The notes below the pieces were generated by a model. The model saw only the letters and a list, made by a program, of their open reading frames with translations, ran no database searches and was not told the DNA's origin. Shown piece by piece: positions 2,790-49,648 of a stretch of DNA of 52,405 bases. Origin of the DNA: Syntrophomonadaceae bacterium (lineage in GTDB: Bacteria; Bacillota; Dethiobacteria; DTU022). Positions within the stretch are counted from its first letter, which is position 1; each line of letters begins with the position of its first letter. A program made the position numbers and the translations under genes. Location: positions 1 through 52,405 of the forward strand of contig PUKV01000040.1 of NCBI GenBank assembly GCA_003550645.1. Direction: 5' to 3'.

Positions 2790-4001
2790 CTAGTTGCCAG
2801 CCATGTCAGCTAATTCGAGGGATTCAAGGTAGTATGACATTACTTCTACTTCATCGAGATTATACTTTTCAGCGGCTATGGAAAATGCTTTATCCCAGTA
2901 GCCCTGTTCGTAAAGCAGCACCAGTTCGAGTATATCTCTGAAAGGACCGGATTCCCCCATGAGAGCACTTTTTATATCTTCCACCAGAGGAAGTTCCTGC
3001 AAAATAACTTCCATAGGTTGATCCAGGAACGTATCAAGAAGAGAGAATAAACCGGTTAAAAAAAGGTCGGCGCTTCTTTTTTCCATCCCGGTCACCGGCG
3101 CCATTAATTCACAAAACTTACCCCTGGAAACTGCTGTGACAATCAGCTCATCGGGTTTGTCATAACCAACATTGCGTAAAGCAACCAGGGAAGCCCACTT
3201 AGTCATTTCTTTCTGGCCCAGCAAAGCCATGGCCTGGCGTATGGAGTGGATTGGGAAACGAACCGGAAAAGCAATGGAATTAATAAAACGCAGCAGTTTA
3301 TATGAGAGAGCGGGATCCTGCTTGATTAAATATTCCACCTGGTCAAAGTCCATTTCCGGTTTGTTTATTTCCTGCAATAACCGCAAATTTTGCAGCTTAG
3401 TGCTTGGAATCTCTTTTCCTATAATAACTGCCGGCTCGCAGAAGAAAAAGCCCTGGAAAAAGTCATAACCATTTGTCATAGCATCCCCATATTCCTGTAC
3501 AGTTTCCACCTTTTCCGCTATCAACTTTTTCTTGCTGCCCCGAAAATAGTTAACTATCTTTTCCCTTTGCTCTGGATTTGTTTCCTGGTAATCCACTTTA
3601 ATAAAATCGACATAGTCGAGCAGATCAGCATACCTGGATTCATGATCGTAGTCATCCAGGACCAGCACATAACCTTTTTTATTAAGTTTTTTACAGGCTT
3701 TAGATACTTCAGCATCGGCTTCTGTTCCGCCGGTAATTTCTACAGCCACGTAATCCCTGGGGAGGAGAAAAGGAGTTTCATTGATTAACAACTGCCCGGT
3801 AAAATTAATAAAAGCTCTTTTCCTTCGGGTTAGTTTGTCCAGGCCCAGATCCAAAAAACTGTTGGCTATAACCTCTGAGGTAGCCAGGTTGCCGTTAAGT
3901 TCAGTATTGTAATTGTCCACACCCGATCGGTAAAGTAATTCATAAGCATAAACTTTCTGTCTCCTGTCAAAAATCGGCTGCCTGGCCACGTAAATATCCA
4001 C
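2790..4001 (-). CDS. EAL plus HDOD two-domain protein (COG3434, YuxH/PdeH-like c-di-GMP phosphodiesterase)
   Basis: 403 aa with GTG start preceded by AAGGAGG. N-terminus MDIYVARQPIFDRRQKVYAYELLYRSG (ELL variant of EAL). Also AFINFT, AVEITG, LDDYD, IKVD, IAEKVET and FFQGFFF. The C-terminal half (HSIRQAMALLGQKEMTKWASLVAL) is HDOD-like. Confidence 0.85.
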   Translation of the reverse strand: MDIYVARQPIFDRRQKVYAYELLYRSGVDNYNTELNGNLATSEVIANSFLDLGLDKLTRRKRAFINFTGQLLINETPFLLPRDYVAVEITGGTEADAEVSKACKKLNKKGYVLVLDDYDHESRYADLLDYVDFIKVDYQETNPEQREKIVNYFRGSKKKLIAEKVETVQEYGDAMTNGYDFFQGFFFCEPAVIIGKEIPSTKLQNLRLLQEINKPEMDFDQVEYLIKQDPALSYKLLRFINSIAFPVRFPIHSIRQAMALLGQKEMTKWASLVALRNVGYDKPDELIVTAVSRGKFCELMAPVTGMEKRSADLFLTGLFSLLDTFLDQPMEVILQELPLVEDIKSALMGESGPFRDILELVLLYEQGYWDKAFSIAAEKYNLDEVEVMSYYLESLELADMAGN

Positions 4002-4274: not shown

Positions 4275-4565
4275 CTACTTTCCTTTCCTGGAATCAGCTT
4301 GTATGATGAAAGCGTATATTGCTGCTACTGCTTCATAAAGCTCCTGCGGCACTTCTTCCCCCAGGGGAAGGTTGCCGAGGACTTTAACTAAGGCTTGATC
4401 CTCAACCACAGGGACCTTGTTGTCCCTGGCCAGGTTAATAATCCTTTCGGCAAGCCAGCCTTTTCCACTGGCAGCAATACTGGGGGCCTGCCTGCTAGCA
4501 GGGTCATAGTGTAAGGCCACTGCCCTGCGAATTTGCTCAATTCTTTGCTGGCGTTTATCAACCAT
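4275..4565 (-). CDS. FlhB C-terminal-domain-like protein (YlqH / EscU-YscU-HrcU switch-domain family)
   Basis: 96 aa. AVALHYDP...APSIAASGKGWLAERIINLARDNKVPVVEDQALVKVL...VPQELYEAVAAIYAFI parallels the post-cleavage part of the FlhB encoded at 22142-23221 (IAIALVYREGVDSAPRVVAKGVEVLARKIREIAVENDVAIIENPPVAQML...IPFELYQAVAEIMAMVY). Confidence 0.8.
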   Translation of the reverse strand: MVDKRQQRIEQIRRAVALHYDPASRQAPSIAASGKGWLAERIINLARDNKVPVVEDQALVKVLGNLPLGEEVPQELYEAVAAIYAFIIQADSRKGK

Positions 4566-17229: not shown

Positions 17230-18015
17230 TTAGACCTCCCTTTCCAACTTGTTGCGCATTAATGTGAATAAATAACTGATGATCTGTTCCTGGATCTCTG
17301 GATCGATGTTCATAAAACTTACCCCGGCCCGGTACCTTTTCCAGCCCCCAATATTTAGGGGCGCCACCCTTACCACTTTTCCCTCCAGCAACAGTAATTG
17401 CTGTTTGCCTTTTTCACCGATATAGGTTGTAATCAGGAGCCGGTCATACCTGGCTAATGGTTCAAGGCTGACCATTCTCAACCCACCGCCCGACATATCC
17501 AGGGAAAAAGCCGGTTTAATGGGGGCCGCAGCTTCCAGCTCTTTCAGGTAATCCCTCATCCATATTGGATCTTCCCAGAAATCCTTGGACTGGAGCATGG
17601 TTTCCGGAAATATACCGTTAACCGGTTTTAATTCATCCCAGCGCCAGTAATGAAGATCCTGGTGGCAGGGGACCCGGACATGGCCGCGCCGCTGATGGCG
17701 ATGGGCAGTATGAGGGCGCTTAACCAGATACCTGGTTACGGATCCCTCTTTTTTGGCTCCAACAACCCGGGAAGTAAAAAAGTAAACGGCGTCCTCTTTA
17801 TTCAGGTAAAACTGCCAGCTGCTGTGGTCTGGCATCTCCAGGGTTTTTCCTCCTGAAAGAGGCTCACTGATCATCATCTCCTCTTTATCCAGGTCGAGAA
17901 CTTTAGCCGTGTAATATTCTTGTTCCGGCTCATGGTAAACCTGAAGCCGATCCTCCACCCCCAGCTTTTTAAACATGTCCGCTGCAGTCCTCCTCTTCCA
18001 GTAAAAACTAATCAT
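17230..18015 (-). CDS. PilZ-domain protein, YcgR/MotI-like candidate flagellar brake (c-di-GMP receptor)
   Basis: 261 aa. RRxxxR motif (QRRGHVRV) and DxSxxG motif (LDMSGGGLRM). It lies between flhG and fliA, as in many Firmicute flagellar loci. Confidence 0.8.
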   Translation of the reverse strand: MISFYWKRRTAADMFKKLGVEDRLQVYHEPEQEYYTAKVLDLDKEEMMISEPLSGGKTLEMPDHSSWQFYLNKEDAVYFFTSRVVGAKKEGSVTRYLVKRPHTAHRHQRRGHVRVPCHQDLHYWRWDELKPVNGIFPETMLQSKDFWEDPIWMRDYLKELEAAAPIKPAFSLDMSGGGLRMVSLEPLARYDRLLITTYIGEKGKQQLLLLEGKVVRVAPLNIGGWKRYRAGVSFMNIDPEIQEQIISYLFTLMRNKLEREV

Positions 18016-38385: not shown

Positions 38386-38790
38386 TTAACGCCTCCCTTC
38401 GTTAATTACAAAACGCCAGTTATCAAAACGGGTATTAAGCTGCTGTGTATATGAATTATAGCGGAGCTGGTTGCTGACCATATTAAGCATTTCGCGCTCC
38501 AGATCCACGTTGCTGCCATCTATGCGCCGGATAGAAGAAGTATCTTTCTTTATCTCCGGCTGAACTTCCGGTGCCGGTGCCCGGGGAAAATGTTTTTCAT
38601 GTGTCCGGGTCAAGGGTGAATCAAGCTGCTTTTTAGCCTTAAGCAGCTGGCCTTCAAATGAAACATCACTGCGTTGAAAGCCGGGCGTATTCAGGTTAGC
38701 CAGGTTATTGGCCGTTACCTGTTGACGCAGTGTTGCTGCACCCAGACCTTCTATTAAACCTTTCATGGTCCCGTCGCGAAAAAGTGACAT
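38386..38790 (-). CDS. flgB: Flagellar basal-body rod protein FlgB
   Basis: 134 aa. QQVTANNLANLNTPGFQRSDVSF and DLEREMLNMVSNQLRYN. Confidence 0.9.
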   Translation of the reverse strand: MSLFRDGTMKGLIEGLGAATLRQQVTANNLANLNTPGFQRSDVSFEGQLLKAKKQLDSPLTRTHEKHFPRAPAPEVQPEIKKDTSSIRRIDGSNVDLEREMLNMVSNQLRYNSYTQQLNTRFDNWRFVINEGRR

Positions 38791-38813
38791 TTTCTCACCT
38801 CGTTCAGTGTAGA

Positions 38814-38849
38814 CAAAAATATAAGAGACCGCCGGGTTGACGGTCTCTT
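38814..38849 (-). terminator. Intrinsic terminator forming the expression platform of the flgB-leader riboswitch
   Basis: Minus strand AAGAGACCG-UCAACCCGG-CGGUCUCUU followed by AUAUUUUUG: a perfect 9-bp stem at 38823-38831 / 38841-38849. It lies 24 nt upstream of the flgB start. Confidence 0.75.
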
Positions 38850-38887
38850 AATAGTAATCAAGAGGGGTGACCTCTTTAAACTTTATA

Positions 38888-38969
38888 GAGACTGGCAACC
38901 TGGCTATCCGGTCAACCGGATCCATGGTTTTGCGTCCCCATATCACTATGGGTTTGCCTTTAGCAGTCC
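38888..38969 (-). ncRNA. c-di-GMP-I (GEMM-I) riboswitch aptamer
   Basis: The minus-strand RNA is GGACUGCUAAAGGCAAACCCAUAGUGAUAUGGGGACGCAAAACCAUGGAUCCGGUUGACCGGAUAGCCAGGUUGCCAGUCUC. P1 is GACUG/CAGUC. GGCAAACC precedes the hairpin CCAUA-GUGA(GNRA)-UAUGG. GACGCAAA follows. The second helix is AACC(A)UGG...CCAGGUU with inner stem AUCCGG-UUGA-CCGGAU. This matches the architecture and conserved nucleotides of the Vc2-type aptamer as I recall them. Confidence 0.85.
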
Positions 38970-39001
38970 TTACGGGCATTACATTTATGTTACGTAAACC
39001 A

Positions 39002-39031
39002 ATTATAGCAGGGCCTTAATTAAAAGGTCAA
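39002..39031 (-). promoter_or_regulatory. SigmaA-type promoter with extended -10, driving the riboswitch and flgB operon
   Basis: Minus strand TTGACC (39026-39031), 18-nt spacer, TGCTATAAT (39002-39010). It is preceded by an A/T-rich UP-like tract (AAAAAAAATTTAAATTAATTTAAATTT). Confidence 0.65.
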
Positions 39032-39393
39032 GGGATTTTTTAGATAATCTTCATATTTGTTAAAAAAATTTGCCTGGATTTTGATATTTCGCTATTTAAT
39101 TAACAATTCCTGCATAAATTTAAATTAATTTAAATTTTTTTTGAAACTACCTAACCTATTGCCCTTTTTTTATGATCAGCGAAACCACAAACCTATGGAG
39201 ATGGTTTGAACATCTTTAAGACATAGCTAACAGGCCAAAAGAGAGACGGTGGAATCGTCACCTGTGATTTATAATGTGATTATAGAGGGAACAGAATAAA
39301 TGAATCGTTCCGTAAGAGTAGTTGTAGCGGCTTAAGCGGCTTAGTAACTGAATTAATAAAGAACTATGGTCAAATTGCTTTACAAGTCCTGCC

Positions 39394-39819
39394 TTAGCAC
39401 TTTTTCTTTATATATATTTCTTCCCGGCCCTCGCTTGCCCCGAAGGGGTGATAAGCTTTTAAAGTCCTCCTTCCGGCAGACATTATAGTTATAGCCTCTC
39501 CTGTATTGTCTTTTTCTTTTACCAGCAACTTGCAATTATGAGTCCTGTGTTTGCAAGCCAATTCTAATAACTGCAGCAGTTGCCTTGATTGCTCCGCGGA
39601 AACCTCTTCCCGGGAAGGAAAACAACTTTTTAACTCCTCTAAAAGCTGCTCCTGTTCGTATCCAATCTTTTTTAGTTCGTCCAAGTCATTAGATTCAATT
39701 GCAGCTCGTTCTTCCCTGGAACCCTTGATCAAACAGTTCAATATGACCAGCACCTGGCAATAATTATCGGGCCTGTCCTGCAGGCGTTGTTCGTCAGACC
39801 TGTTCCTGTTTTGAACCAT
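39394..39819 (-). CDS. Hypothetical helical protein, FlgN-like (possible flagellar chaperone)
   Basis: 141-aa ORF directly after fliW. EERAAIESNDLDELKKIGYEQEQLLEELK resembles the FlgN-family N-terminal pattern. The functional call is weak. Confidence 0.35.
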   Translation of the reverse strand: MVQNRNRSDEQRLQDRPDNYCQVLVILNCLIKGSREERAAIESNDLDELKKIGYEQEQLLEELKSCFPSREEVSAEQSRQLLQLLELACKHRTHNCKLLVKEKDNTGEAITIMSAGRRTLKAYHPFGASEGREEIYIKKKC

Positions 39820-46343: not shown

Positions 46344-46604
46344 TTAGTGACGCGGTTTTTTTTGAACCAGTTTTACGGCATCAAGGACTATGGCTAAAAC
46401 ATCCAGGTCCTTTTGCATAGCCAGTAAATCAGCGCGGCCGTATGATTCACCTTTACTTGAAACTACGTATCGCGGAGGAATTTTATTCAGGGCAATAGCA
46501 CTAATATCGAGACGGCATTGCTGGCAGGTGCAAAAGTCGTGGTGCTTCTTGATGTCCTCAATAGTATTGGACACTACATCTTCAATCAAGTTTTTTAATT
46601 CCAT
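46344..46604 (-). CDS. ComFB-family protein
   Basis: MELKNLIEDVVSNTIEDIKKHHDFCTCQQCRLDISAIALNKIPPRYVVS matches the ComFB fold signature (CxC..C cluster). The ATG at 46604 follows AAGGGAG. The ORF also permits starts at 46637 or 46640, overlapping the HD-GYP stop. Confidence 0.78.
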   Translation of the reverse strand: MELKNLIEDVVSNTIEDIKKHHDFCTCQQCRLDISAIALNKIPPRYVVSSKGESYGRADLLAMQKDLDVLAIVLDAVKLVQKKPRH

Positions 46605-46636
46605 CAGGTTCCATCTCCCTTTTTTGGTTAAATACA

Positions 46637-47758
46637 TCAAGAAGAAGGATTTCGTAACAGCCGTTCCGGAAGCTCATGTTCTTCATAAACCCGCTCCACT
46701 GTGACGTTTAGGGTAGTAAGTAAATCAATTTCATAGCACTCAACCGGAGAAAAACTTTCTTTTTCTGCTATGACCCTGACCCGGGGTCTGGTTGGATAAC
46801 CGCTGGTATTATGGACTACCACCCCGACGTAACCATTATCAAGGCTAATTATAGTACCAACCGGGTACGCGGCGATATGATGATAAAAAGTTTGCATGAC
46901 CTGCATATCATACCCCTCGCACTCTTCCTCCATGATTTCCATGGCCTGGTGGGGCTTAAAACCCTGCCGGTAAGGGCGATCTGAAACCAGGGCGTCATAA
47001 ACATCGGCAACTGCACATATTTTGGGATAGCGTTCAATTTCATCTCCATGCAATCCCTGCGGATAACCTTTACCGTTTATCCTTTCGTGGTGCTTATAAA
47101 TAATTGCTAAAGATGGCCCATTAAAAAAATGCCTCCCTTTTACAAGTTCAAGACCGTAAAGTGGATGTTTTTCAATCTCCAACCGCTCTTCTTCCAGCAA
47201 ACGGCCAGGTTTATTTAATATGCTTAAAGGAACTACAACCTTACCTAAATCATGCAAAAAAGCGCCTATCCCCATATGTTTTAGCTCTGTTCTATTCATT
47301 CCCAGGGAAATCCCGGTCATAATCGATAAAACAGCCACATTTACTGAATGCGAAAAAGTGTAGTCATCAGTGTACCTTATATCGGATAAATTGACCGTTA
47401 AATTCTCATTACCTAGCAGCTGGTTAATAATATCATCAAGTATATCTGTCAATTCCTGCCTGGCCGTCACCAGTTTTGACAGCTTCGGGCGTTGATATTC
47501 TTTTAAAGCGGTCAGGGTAGAACGGACCATGTTAATAGCCTTTTCCCTAGTTTCTTCGAGAATGACATCTTCCACCATAACATCGGGAATTAAATCATCG
47601 TGAATGTAAACCGCCCTGACATTGAGTTTTTTCAATTTCTGTATATAATCCATCTCCAGCTGAACCCCGACATTCAAAAGGGGGGCACCGCTGTTGCTGG
47701 CTACTTTTTTCGCAACTTCCATCCCCGGACGCAAAGCCCAGACAGGTACCAACCGCAT
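46637..47758 (-). CDS. HD-GYP domain c-di-GMP phosphodiesterase
   Basis: 373 aa. HSVNVA, GAFLHDLGK, HHERINGKGYPQGL (HD-GYP signature) and DVYDALVSDRPYR. Confidence 0.88.
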   Translation of the reverse strand: MRLVPVWALRPGMEVAKKVASNSGAPLLNVGVQLEMDYIQKLKKLNVRAVYIHDDLIPDVMVEDVILEETREKAINMVRSTLTALKEYQRPKLSKLVTARQELTDILDDIINQLLGNENLTVNLSDIRYTDDYTFSHSVNVAVLSIMTGISLGMNRTELKHMGIGAFLHDLGKVVVPLSILNKPGRLLEEERLEIEKHPLYGLELVKGRHFFNGPSLAIIYKHHERINGKGYPQGLHGDEIERYPKICAVADVYDALVSDRPYRQGFKPHQAMEIMEEECEGYDMQVMQTFYHHIAAYPVGTIISLDNGYVGVVVHNTSGYPTRPRVRVIAEKESFSPVECYEIDLLTTLNVTVERVYEEHELPERLLRNPSS

Positions 47759-48115: not shown

Positions 48116-49648
48116 TTAAATTTGTTCTTCTTCAAGCTTAATGGGGCCCAGGCCCAATAACCAAAATCCATTTTTTGCCCTACCATTTTCAGGAACCAGT
48201 CTTCCATAACCAAACCGGCTCCCTAATAACCATTTTCCGGTAAAACGTTCACCGGAGGCCGGGTTACAGGTGCCGTAACCATGGCGCAGTCCTCTCCACC
48301 ACCGCCCCCGGTATGTACTTCCATCCGGCCAGGTCCTGACACCCCAACCCTGAAATTTGTCAAATGCAAATTCGCCCTCGTATGTTCCTTTACCTGCAAA
48401 TATACAGTATCCGTAGCCATGCATCATCCCGGCATTCCAGCTGCCGCGCCAGCTAGAACCACCCTCCTTTTCCAGGCAACCTTCGCCATGATATAAATTG
48501 TTTTTAAAATAACCTTCATAATAATCTCCGTTTGGGTAACGATACAGGCCAAACCCTTCGATCAAGTCTTCCCGCCAATCTCCCCTGTACTCAGAACCAT
48601 CTTTCCAGACCATAACACCTTGCCCGTGCTTTTTACCATTTTTAAAATCCCCTCTATATTTAGCCCCATTCTTATAATTAACTGCACCCTGCCCATTAGG
48701 TCGGGCATTTTCCAGTTCGCCGCTGTAAAATGAGCCATCTGGAAAAAAGTAAGTGCCACCCTCCTGTGCCGCACCTTCTATAAAAGTTCCAACAAATCGA
48801 GATCCATCCCGATAATGAATAGTTCCTTTTCCATGAGGCCGGTTCTTTTTACAATCCCCCTTATATTTTGAACCGTCAGGATATAAACATTTTCCGCTTC
48901 CACTGTTTCTTCCATGTTCAAAAAAGCCTCTGAATTGTGTGCCATCGGCAAAGAAAACAGTACCTTTGCCGTGAGGCAAACCGTCTTTCAACCTGCCTTT
49001 GTACAAGGCATTTTCTGGAAAATAAAAATGACCTTTATCTGCAAACTGTCCTTGCTTAAAATAACCTGCATATTTAGATCCATTAGCGAAATAATAAATT
49101 CCACGACCGTCCAGGCGGTTACCCCGCCACTGCCCTTCGTACCTGCGGCCATCGGGCCATATTTGAGTCCCGGTTCCATCCCGCAGGTCCTCAAACCACT
49201 GACCTTTATAACTTTTTCCGTTAGGCCAGATCATTTTACCTTCCCCATGTCGGTAAGCATTTCTCCACTCACCAATATATTTTCTTCCATCAGGCCAGGT
49301 AAAAGTACCGTGCCCTTCATATAAGCCGTTTACGAATTCGCCTTCGTATTTTTCACCACCAGGCCAGTAATAAGTTCCCAGGCCATGCATCTGGTCATTT
49401 TTCCATTCTCCAACATATTTCCGCCAATCGGCAAACAGGTACGTACCCCGGCCGTGCATCTTGTCCTCTTTCCAGTGCCCCTCGTACTTATCCCCATTGG
49501 ACCATACAAATGTTCCTTCACCGTGGAACAGGCCGTTTTTCCACTCGCCACTGTACCTGCTGCCATCCGGCCAGATAACGGTACCGCGGCCATGCGGCTT
49601 TTTATTTAATAATTCTCCCTTATATTCTCCATTTCCGGCCAGTTTCAT
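48116..49648 (-). CDS. MORN-repeat protein (21 uninterrupted 23-aa repeats)
   Basis: 510 aa. A Y-x-G-x-(W/F)-x-x-x-x-x-x-G-x-G pattern repeats every 23 residues from YKGELLNKKPHGRGTVIWPDGSR to FTGKWLLGSRFGYGRLVPENGRA. I see no signal peptide or TM segment. Confidence 0.85.
   Translation of the reverse strand: MKLAGNGEYKGELLNKKPHGRGTVIWPDGSRYSGEWKNGLFHGEGTFVWSNGDKYEGHWKEDKMHGRGTYLFADWRKYVGEWKNDQMHGLGTYYWPGGEKYEGEFVNGLYEGHGTFTWPDGRKYIGEWRNAYRHGEGKMIWPNGKSYKGQWFEDLRDGTGTQIWPDGRRYEGQWRGNRLDGRGIYYFANGSKYAGYFKQGQFADKGHFYFPENALYKGRLKDGLPHGKGTVFFADGTQFRGFFEHGRNSGSGKCLYPDGSKYKGDCKKNRPHGKGTIHYRDGSRFVGTFIEGAAQEGGTYFFPDGSFYSGELENARPNGQGAVNYKNGAKYRGDFKNGKKHGQGVMVWKDGSEYRGDWREDLIEGFGLYRYPNGDYYEGYFKNNLYHGEGCLEKEGGSSWRGSWNAGMMHGYGYCIFAGKGTYEGEFAFDKFQGWGVRTWPDGSTYRGRWWRGLRHGYGTCNPASGERFTGKWLLGSRFGYGRLVPENGRAKNGFWLLGLGPIKLEEEQI

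Follow-up and report, generated by a model that had tools for sequence, protein, structure and literature searches.

A riboswitch-like leader at the entry of a flagellar gene block

We analyzed a 52,405-nt stretch of DNA from a Syntrophomonadaceae bacterium (assembly GCA_003550645.1, contig PUKV01000040.1), hereafter the window, with a focus on the leader of flgB, the first gene of a long flagellar and chemotaxis block; the leader is read on the minus strand throughout. An intergenic gap of 603 nt separates a small open reading frame (ORF; 39394-39819) from the flgB start codon at 38790, and the flgB-proximal end of this gap holds a compact regulatory unit consisting of a promoter, a class-I cyclic di-GMP (c-di-GMP-I, or GEMM-I) aptamer, a small hairpin, and an intrinsic terminator with its U-tract (Table 1). 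These parts most probably form a canonical class-I c-di-GMP riboswitch that stands before a Bacillus-type fla/che block and turns it OFF by terminating transcription, a reading to which we give a probability of roughly 0.85. The parts, their conservation, the covariation in aptamer and terminator, and the mutual exclusivity of two alternative folds were all demonstrated by computation. An initial annotation, made from the letters alone, had proposed that the minus strand of the gap encodes a complete regulatory unit, and all of the components that it listed were found where it had placed them. The leader (220 nt) folds 4.5 standard deviations better than dinucleotide shuffles of itself (z = -4.5).

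Table 1. Features of the flgB leader, with window coordinates and the evidence for each
Feature	Coordinates	Strand	Evidence
-35 box TTGACC of the flgB-operon promoter	39026..39031	-	Consensus scan; kept in 12/12 closest relatives
Extended -10 element TGcTATAAT (TATAAT = 39007-39002)	39002..39010	-	Consensus scan
c-di-GMP-I (GEMM-I) aptamer	38889..38969	-	Rfam match of 65.7 bits, key nucleotides, covariation
Antiterminator 5' strand GGUUGCCAGUCUCU (P2-3' strand + C92 + P1-3' strand)	38887..38900	-	Duplex and constrained folds
Small hairpin AAGAGG-UCACC-CCUCUU, antiterminator apex; persists in the terminator state	38860..38876	-	Folding; similar apical hairpin in most relatives
Antiterminator 3' strand AGAGACCGUCAACC (terminator 5' arm + loop)	38835..38848	-	Duplex and folds
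Intrinsic terminator stem-loop (12 bp, 5-nt loop, -18.4 kcal/mol)	38822..38850	-	Inverted repeat, fold, covariation
U-tract UAUUUUUGU	38813..38821	-	Sequence reading
flgB ribosome-binding site GAGGUG, 5 nt before ATG 38790, outside the switch	38796..38801	-	Sequence reading
flgB, first gene of a co-directional flagella/chemotaxis block running to ~4275	38386..38790	-	Pfam Flg_bb_rod

Promoter elements match the consensus at 11 of 12 positions, with the TG of an extended -10 element in addition and a spacer of 18 nt. In all 12 of the closest relatives the aptamer is preceded by TTGACC, a spacer of exactly 18 nt, and TG-n-TATAAT (once TATACT), and the letters of the spacer vary freely, a phylogenetic footprint that supports assignment as a putative σA-type promoter. 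The initial annotation wrote the same promoter as TTGACC-N18-TGC-TATAAT; its elements are in place, but the notation is slightly off, as the 18 nt already contain the TGC. From the usual distance of 7 nt, transcription is predicted to start at about A38995, which would give a leader of ∼205 nt. The σD-type promoter pattern TAAA-N14-16-GCCGATAA had 0 matches in the intergenic gap, with up to 1 and with up to 2 mismatches. Inverted repeats suited to an invertible element were not found in 38780-39400, and on this ground an invertible "flagellar switch" like that of Clostridioides difficile was rejected. Farther upstream, a perfect 22-nt AT palindrome (AAATTTAAATT/AATTTAAATTT, 39116-39137) lies in a very AT-rich tract 85 to 105 nt upstream of the -35 box and could be a UP-element-like region or a regulator site. 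The small 141-aa ORF that bounds the gap (39394-39819, minus strand) follows fliW and has a sub-threshold FlgN match alone (21.9 bits, cutoff 30.5); in Bacillus, csrA stands after fliW.

Identity and ligand-site nucleotides of the aptamer

The whole window was scanned with 4227 Rfam models at their gathering scores. A single match passed, at 38967-38890 on the minus strand (65.7 bits, E = 2e-13). The best family is RF03167 (c-di-GMP-I-GGC; gathering score, 59) and not RF01051; a second member of the same clan, CL00126, also exceeds its own gathering score at the aptamer site and is masked by clan competition. The near-identical aptamer of the nearest relative, locus L002, scores 63.4 bits on RF01051 (gathering score, 35) and serves as a proxy for the window. 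For other RNA families, only chance-level matches were seen in 38700-39450 at E values up to 10. Two ORFs of 43 and 50 aa that overlie the aptamer were dismissed, as the conservation pattern is that of RNA helices.

The aptamer is closed by helix P1, in which GGACUG (38969-38964) pairs with CAGUCU (38894-38889). The first of the two inner helices carries a GUGA tetraloop (38946-38943) and the second (P2) a bulged A, which agrees with the GNRA-capped helix and bulged-A helix that the initial annotation described at 38888-38969, although the top Rfam label is that of the GGC variant. In the Vc2 aptamer, G20 forms a Watson-Crick/Hoogsteen pairing with the α guanine of the ligand, C92 a Watson-Crick pair with the β guanine, and the backbone phosphate of A47 bonds the 2'-hydroxyl of the α guanine (PMC5888326); the same contact residues, along with a universally conserved interhelical pair, are listed elsewhere (PMC4744006). 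At the equivalent positions the window has the canonical G-A-C triad (G20 = 38958, A47 = 38931, C92 = 38895), and the interhelical C44-G83 pair corresponds to 38934-38904 and is kept in 20 of 21 aptamers aligned from this and related loci. GNNA loops are likewise present in 20 of the 21. The CUAA/uAu receptor bulges of the RF01051 consensus, by comparison, are deleted throughout the clade, whose P2 is short.

Conservation among related flgB loci

The exact FlgB protein of the window recurs in one Logan contig, from a 2012 salt-lake metagenome. A scan of a genome collection with a FlgB alignment yielded 79 loci, the closest of which belong to metagenome-assembled genomes (MAGs) of uncultured Syntrophomonadaceae and Bacillota (FlgB identity, 57 to 88%), with Dethiobacteria and others further out. 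Forty of the 79 loci were covered by the Rfam scan, and half of these (20/40), including 16 of the 17 closest, have a CL00126 aptamer on the flgB strand 60 to 150 nt upstream of flgB. As in the window, RF03167 ranked above RF01051 in 12 of the relatives.

In the alignment of 21 aptamers, 94.9% of the cells in the GEMM-I structure are paired, and 12 of its 25 base pairs show double-sided changes, such that P1 and the two stacked helices are upheld by compensatory substitutions. None of 500 shuffles reached any of the five covariation measures, and sliding the 3' partners by 1 to 3 columns lowered pairing to 27 to 45%. Covariation of this kind argues strongly for a structured RNA that has been conserved. 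That it is kept among relatives whose FlgB proteins are only 50 to 60% identical points to purifying selection on RNA structure.

Two aptamers upstream of flgB depart from the canonical binding site. In the Bacillota MAG AS09scLD_241 (L014:2325-2403, 44.8 bits), the G20 position is A and the C44 position is G. We take A at this position to be the signature of c-AMP-GMP-sensing GEMM-Ib RNAs (c-AMP-GMP, cyclic AMP-GMP), and the L014 aptamer could be a specificity variant that controls flagella, a decaying aptamer, or a MAG error. In a MAG of uncultured Syntrophomonadaceae (L011:2001-2077, 62.2 bits), the G20 position is C and the first-helix G-C pair (22-37) is swapped; the aptamer is otherwise canonical and may be a candidate for altered specificity. 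A Dethiobacteria MAG carries a c-di-GMP-I aptamer (L028:3667-3756, 72.6 bits) within its flagellar gene string and not upstream of flgB; it follows the third small ORF past flgB (fliE by position) and lies ∼40 nt before a membrane-protein ORF in the position of fliF. Judged by these placements, the entry point of c-di-GMP control appears to vary between lineages.

Terminator and mutually exclusive antiterminator

Downstream of the aptamer, the initial annotation had named a small hairpin, which is present with the sequence given, and a perfect 9-bp terminator with a U-tract ending 24 nt before flgB. The perfect inverted repeat is in fact 10 bp long and can be extended to 12 bp, and the U-run stops at 38815, leaving 24 nt to the flgB ATG at 38790; transcripts released here are predicted to be ∼180 nt long. 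A stable hairpin followed by a T-rich tract is found 22 to 64 nt before flgB in 19 of 20 relatives. Over the 13 leaders that could be aligned, the terminator helix is 84% paired and 5 of its pairs are changed on both sides, for example where the window has A-U and C-G and others have G-C and A-U. When metagenomes were searched for window-type terminators with a pattern requiring GAGAGACCG (the L002 form), only L081, a near-duplicate of L002, was recovered.

The 5' side of the terminator can instead pair with the aptamer. Strand GGUUGCCAGUCUCU (38900-38887) is complementary to AGAGACCGUCAACC (38848-38835) at 12 of 14 positions, and the resulting duplex (-16.1 kcal/mol, z = -4.6) was matched by none of 500 shuffles. 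The pairing of GUCUCU with AGAGAC that the initial annotation offered as an antiterminator does exist (38892-38887 with 38848-38843) but is merely part of this longer helix, which also takes up the P2-3' strand and C92. If the terminator 3' arm is blocked or untranscribed, the unconstrained fold adopts the antiterminator helix, extended by an inner helix and capped by the small hairpin; in folds of successively longer prefixes, the antiterminator appears once 38842-38834 has been made. Folding of the full leader (38995-38812) gave -61.8 kcal/mol with the aptamer forced and the terminator formed, -59.4 kcal/mol with the antiterminator forced, and -63.9 kcal/mol as the unconstrained minimum free energy. 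Such near-isoenergetic states fit a kinetically controlled transcriptional riboswitch in which the ligand would tip the choice.

The same competition recurs in relatives. With the 3' arm withheld, the aptamer GGYUGCC pairs with the terminator 5' arm in 19 of 20, and most show a small apical hairpin. In most relatives the 5' arm contains GGCAGCC, and the terminator 3' arm then copies the GGCUGCC of the aptamer; in the window and L002 the arm is AGAGACCG and the loop holds CAACC and CAAAC, respectively. In these two leaders the terminator has shifted in register against the antiterminator, but the logic is the same. One compensatory change is seen in the inner helix of the antiterminator, where UAA:UUA of the window corresponds to CAA:UUG of L002.

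Proposed mechanism and alternative explanations

In the mechanism that we propose, RNA polymerase would initiate at the σA-type promoter near 38995, and the aptamer (38969-38889) would emerge first. At low c-di-GMP, P1 and the lower part of P2 would stay unlocked, and the emerging segment 38848-38835 would pair with 38900-38887, building an extended antiterminator stem that is tipped by the small hairpin. With nothing left to pair with the terminator 3' arm (38833-38822), transcription would proceed into flgB and the genes behind it, including those for σD and a YcgR-like PilZ brake. At high c-di-GMP, G20, A47, and C92 would clamp the ligand and stabilize P1 and P2; the 5' arm would then be free, the 12-bp terminator would form, and the leader RNA of ∼180 nt would be released. 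The initial annotation had likewise argued for an OFF switch in which ligand-bound P1 frees the terminator and ligand-free RNA forms an antiterminator, and the mutually exclusive pairings support that proposal in silico.

Could the ligand be something other than c-di-GMP? A specificity variant of the c-di-GMP-I-GGC or c-AMP-GMP (GEMM-Ib) type would accord with the rank of RF03167 over RF01051 in the window and 12 relatives and with a clade-wide P2 that is short and without receptor bulges, but we regard this as very improbable. Comparison of the two Rfam consensus lines, from which we derived the position diagnostic of the GGC variant, places the difference at the A47 equivalent (GACGC-A-AAgCc in RF01051, GACGC-G-AAgCc in RF03167). 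This nucleotide is A in the window and in 21 of 21 aligned aptamers, and cmscan shows no match in this column of the alignment; membership in RF03167 was rejected for lack of the G, despite a score above the cutoff (65.7 versus 59). RF03167 outscores RF01051 because the short P2 makes RF01051 pay for deletions, and since the label switches between the two families among near-identical leaders that all have A47, it follows helix length and not the binding site. The term "GGC" is said, from the 2017 work of Weinberg et al., to refer to positions 20/47/92, and an A at position 20 is reportedly the c-AMP-GMP (GEMM-Ib) signature in the 2015 studies of Kellenberger and of Nelson. Variants of the c-AMP-GMP type do exist (PMC7266159). 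The window retains G at position 20 (38958), and a GEMM-Ib identity was rejected. We conclude that the GGC label arises from the scoring and does not reflect a variant binding site; the RNA is best read as a canonical c-di-GMP-I aptamer, with c-di-GMP as its predicted ligand.

If c-di-GMP is bound, the direction or the level of control might still differ, as some class-I c-di-GMP riboswitches activate (1 of 12 in C. difficile is induced; PMC3649979) and thermodynamic models of expression platforms can mislead. We hold an ON switch, or an effect on translation instead of termination, to be quite unlikely: competition for the terminator 5' arm comes from the P2-3'/P1-3' side of the aptamer itself, an OFF arrangement because ligand-stabilized P1 and P2 would leave the terminator free; the ribosome-binding site lies 20 nt past the terminator stem and takes part in neither alternative fold; and the flgB precedent is an OFF switch (PMC6366702). 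We rate equally low the chance that the hairpin and U-tract are a constitutive attenuator, or the aptamer a decaying relic, with the complementarity between aptamer and terminator incidental. The functional role here is predicted from sequence, and the binding sites of L014 and L011 do show drift within the group; against this, relatives whose FlgB identity has fallen to 50 to 60% still have the aptamer with its key nucleotides, the terminator, and the complementarity between the two, and the helices are upheld by compensatory changes. For the canonical c-di-GMP OFF switch that we favor, we infer the direction of switching in vivo from this arrangement of competing strands. Several observations weigh against it. 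The top Rfam label is that of the GGC variant, and with the receptor bulges gone the affinity may differ from that of textbook examples. RNAfold alone did not recover the native aptamer as the minimum free energy structure, which is usual for aptamers held together by tertiary contacts. The loop pairing GGUUG:CAACC is weaker in L002 (CAAAC; duplex p = 0.07), and in the antiterminator core the 5' strand is aptamer sequence that does not vary, leaving no scope for covariation there, while the window and L002 also differ in register from the other relatives. Finally, a search of sequencing runs found the sequence in only two 2012 salt-lake DNA metagenomes and in 0 RNA runs.

Downstream gene block and other c-di-GMP-related genes

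The flagella/chemotaxis block occupies ∼34.5 kb (38790 to 4275); its genes all lie on the minus strand and are separated by small gaps. Its order is flgB, flgC, fliE, fliF, fliG, fliH, fliI, fliJ, fliK, flgD, a small flagellar ORF, and flgE, followed by motA, motB, fliL, a FliN-like gene, fliO, fliP, fliQ, fliR, flhB, flhA, flhF, and flhG. Behind flhG lie genes for a PilZNR-PilZ protein, a σ70-family factor in the σD position, and DUF6115, then two rod genes, fliM, fliN, a CheC-FliN fusion, cheA, a receiver protein, cheD, cheB, and cheR. No minus-strand hairpin comparable to the leader terminator was found inside the block (38790-4275). Terminator-like matches in it are slightly more frequent than in shuffles (35 and 31 found versus 24.3 and 23.5 expected), and their stems are all short; the first such match to fall between genes is at 2674-2662. 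It is plausible from this layout that the block is one long transcription unit, possibly with internal promoters. The initial annotation had spoken of a flgB operon of more than 30 kb; a co-directional block of that size is real, while its being a single operon goes beyond the layout. At the distal end of the che genes, a stand-alone 96-aa ORF (4275-4565, minus strand) shows a match to FlhB that is limited to the C-terminal part (Bac_export_2 positions 262-335).

Several genes in the window are related to c-di-GMP. The YcgR-like PilZ protein (17230-18015) has both RxxxR (RHQRR, residue 106) and DxSxxG (DMSGGG, residue 173) motifs, and an HD_5 protein upstream (46637-47758) has HD, HHE, and GYP motifs. 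In an EAL-HDOD protein (2790-4001, minus strand) the EAL and DDFG motifs read ELL and DDYD, and the match to the EAL profile is confined to the C-terminal half of the profile; this may be a degenerate sensor-type EAL protein rather than an active phosphodiesterase. The initial annotation had cited the PilZ brake, EAL-HDOD, and HD-GYP genes as making c-di-GMP the master input of this locus; the genes are real and have motifs of the kind expected, with ELL and DDYD in the EAL-HDOD protein, but "master input" overstates what they imply.

A gene for a ComFB-domain protein (46344-46640, minus strand) comes directly after the HD-GYP gene and before a FapA-like gene and flgM. ComFB proteins were recently reported to be cyclic-dinucleotide receptors; if ComFB senses such nucleotides, this gene would be a further link to c-di-GMP in the locus. 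A 510-aa protein made of 11 MORN repeats (48116-49648, minus strand) adjoins the HD-GYP/flagellar late-gene cluster.

We also considered, as a tentative and rather doubtful idea, that the riboswitch and the PilZ brake (17230-18015) form a "pre-loaded brake" circuit, and that the short-P2 aptamer of this clade, lacking its receptor, may have a c-di-GMP threshold unlike that of the PilZ protein. In such a circuit the brake, encoded inside the operon, would be made only at low c-di-GMP and activated post-translationally as c-di-GMP rises and flagellar synthesis stops; differing thresholds of aptamer and PilZ protein would produce two ordered c-di-GMP responses.

Comparison with known systems

The predicted riboswitch marks the regulatory entry of a flagella/chemotaxis block in an uncultured salt-lake Bacillota lineage, and its value is chiefly one of annotation. 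With it, the Cd1-type arrangement of a riboswitch before flgB reaches beyond C. difficile into a distant clade of environmental bacteria (20 of the 40 scanned loci). It also exposes an annotation pitfall, in that Rfam clan competition labels the window aptamer and those of 12 relatives as the GGC variant despite a canonical A47. With differing terminator sequences and one competing-strand design, the 20 leaders are suited to the study of how expression platforms drift at constant logic. That logic is already known from Cd1, and the leader suggests no new mechanism.

In C. difficile, the Cd1 element that precedes flgB is transcribed from a σA promoter and acts as a c-di-GMP OFF switch with a terminated RNA of 160 nt (PMC6366702, PMC5386303, PMC3649979). 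Its terminated product is dose dependent in vitro, the 160-nt RNA is seen on northern blots, and raised c-di-GMP lowers flgB expression and motility (PMC6366702, PMC3649979, PMC5386303). Compared by description and not by RNA alignment, Cd1 (Cdi1_3) and the window leader share a class-I aptamer in the 5' leader of flgB, in each case the first gene of an early flagellar operon that also encodes σD, as well as a σA-type promoter, an intrinsic terminator after the aptamer, OFF logic (predicted here), and a short terminated leader (160 nt in C. difficile, ∼180 nt predicted in the window). The view of the initial annotation that the locus mirrors Cd1 holds at this level, in the order of promoter, aptamer, and terminator as well as in the OFF logic. 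The two differ in the length of the leader (496 to 498 nt versus ∼205 nt), in the distance from the end of the terminator to flgB (338 nt versus 24 nt), and in the size of the block (23 kb versus ∼34.5 kb, che genes included). C. difficile has a 154-bp invertible flagellar switch, whereas flanking inverted repeats were not found in the window (38780-39400), and one host is a pathogen while the other is an uncultured salt-lake Syntrophomonadaceae-like member of the Bacillota.

With Vc2 of Vibrio cholerae, the window aptamer shares the two-helix GEMM-I fold, the GNRA tetraloop on the first helix, G20/A47/C92, and the C44-G83 pair (PMC5888326, PMC4744006); it differs in a short second helix without the receptor bulges of the Rfam consensus and in an expression platform of Gram-positive style, with terminator and antiterminator. 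RF03167 is the best-scoring model and has the short second helix in common with the window, but the G that it places at the A47 equivalent is A (38931) in the window and in all relatives, so that the feature that gives the family its name is absent.

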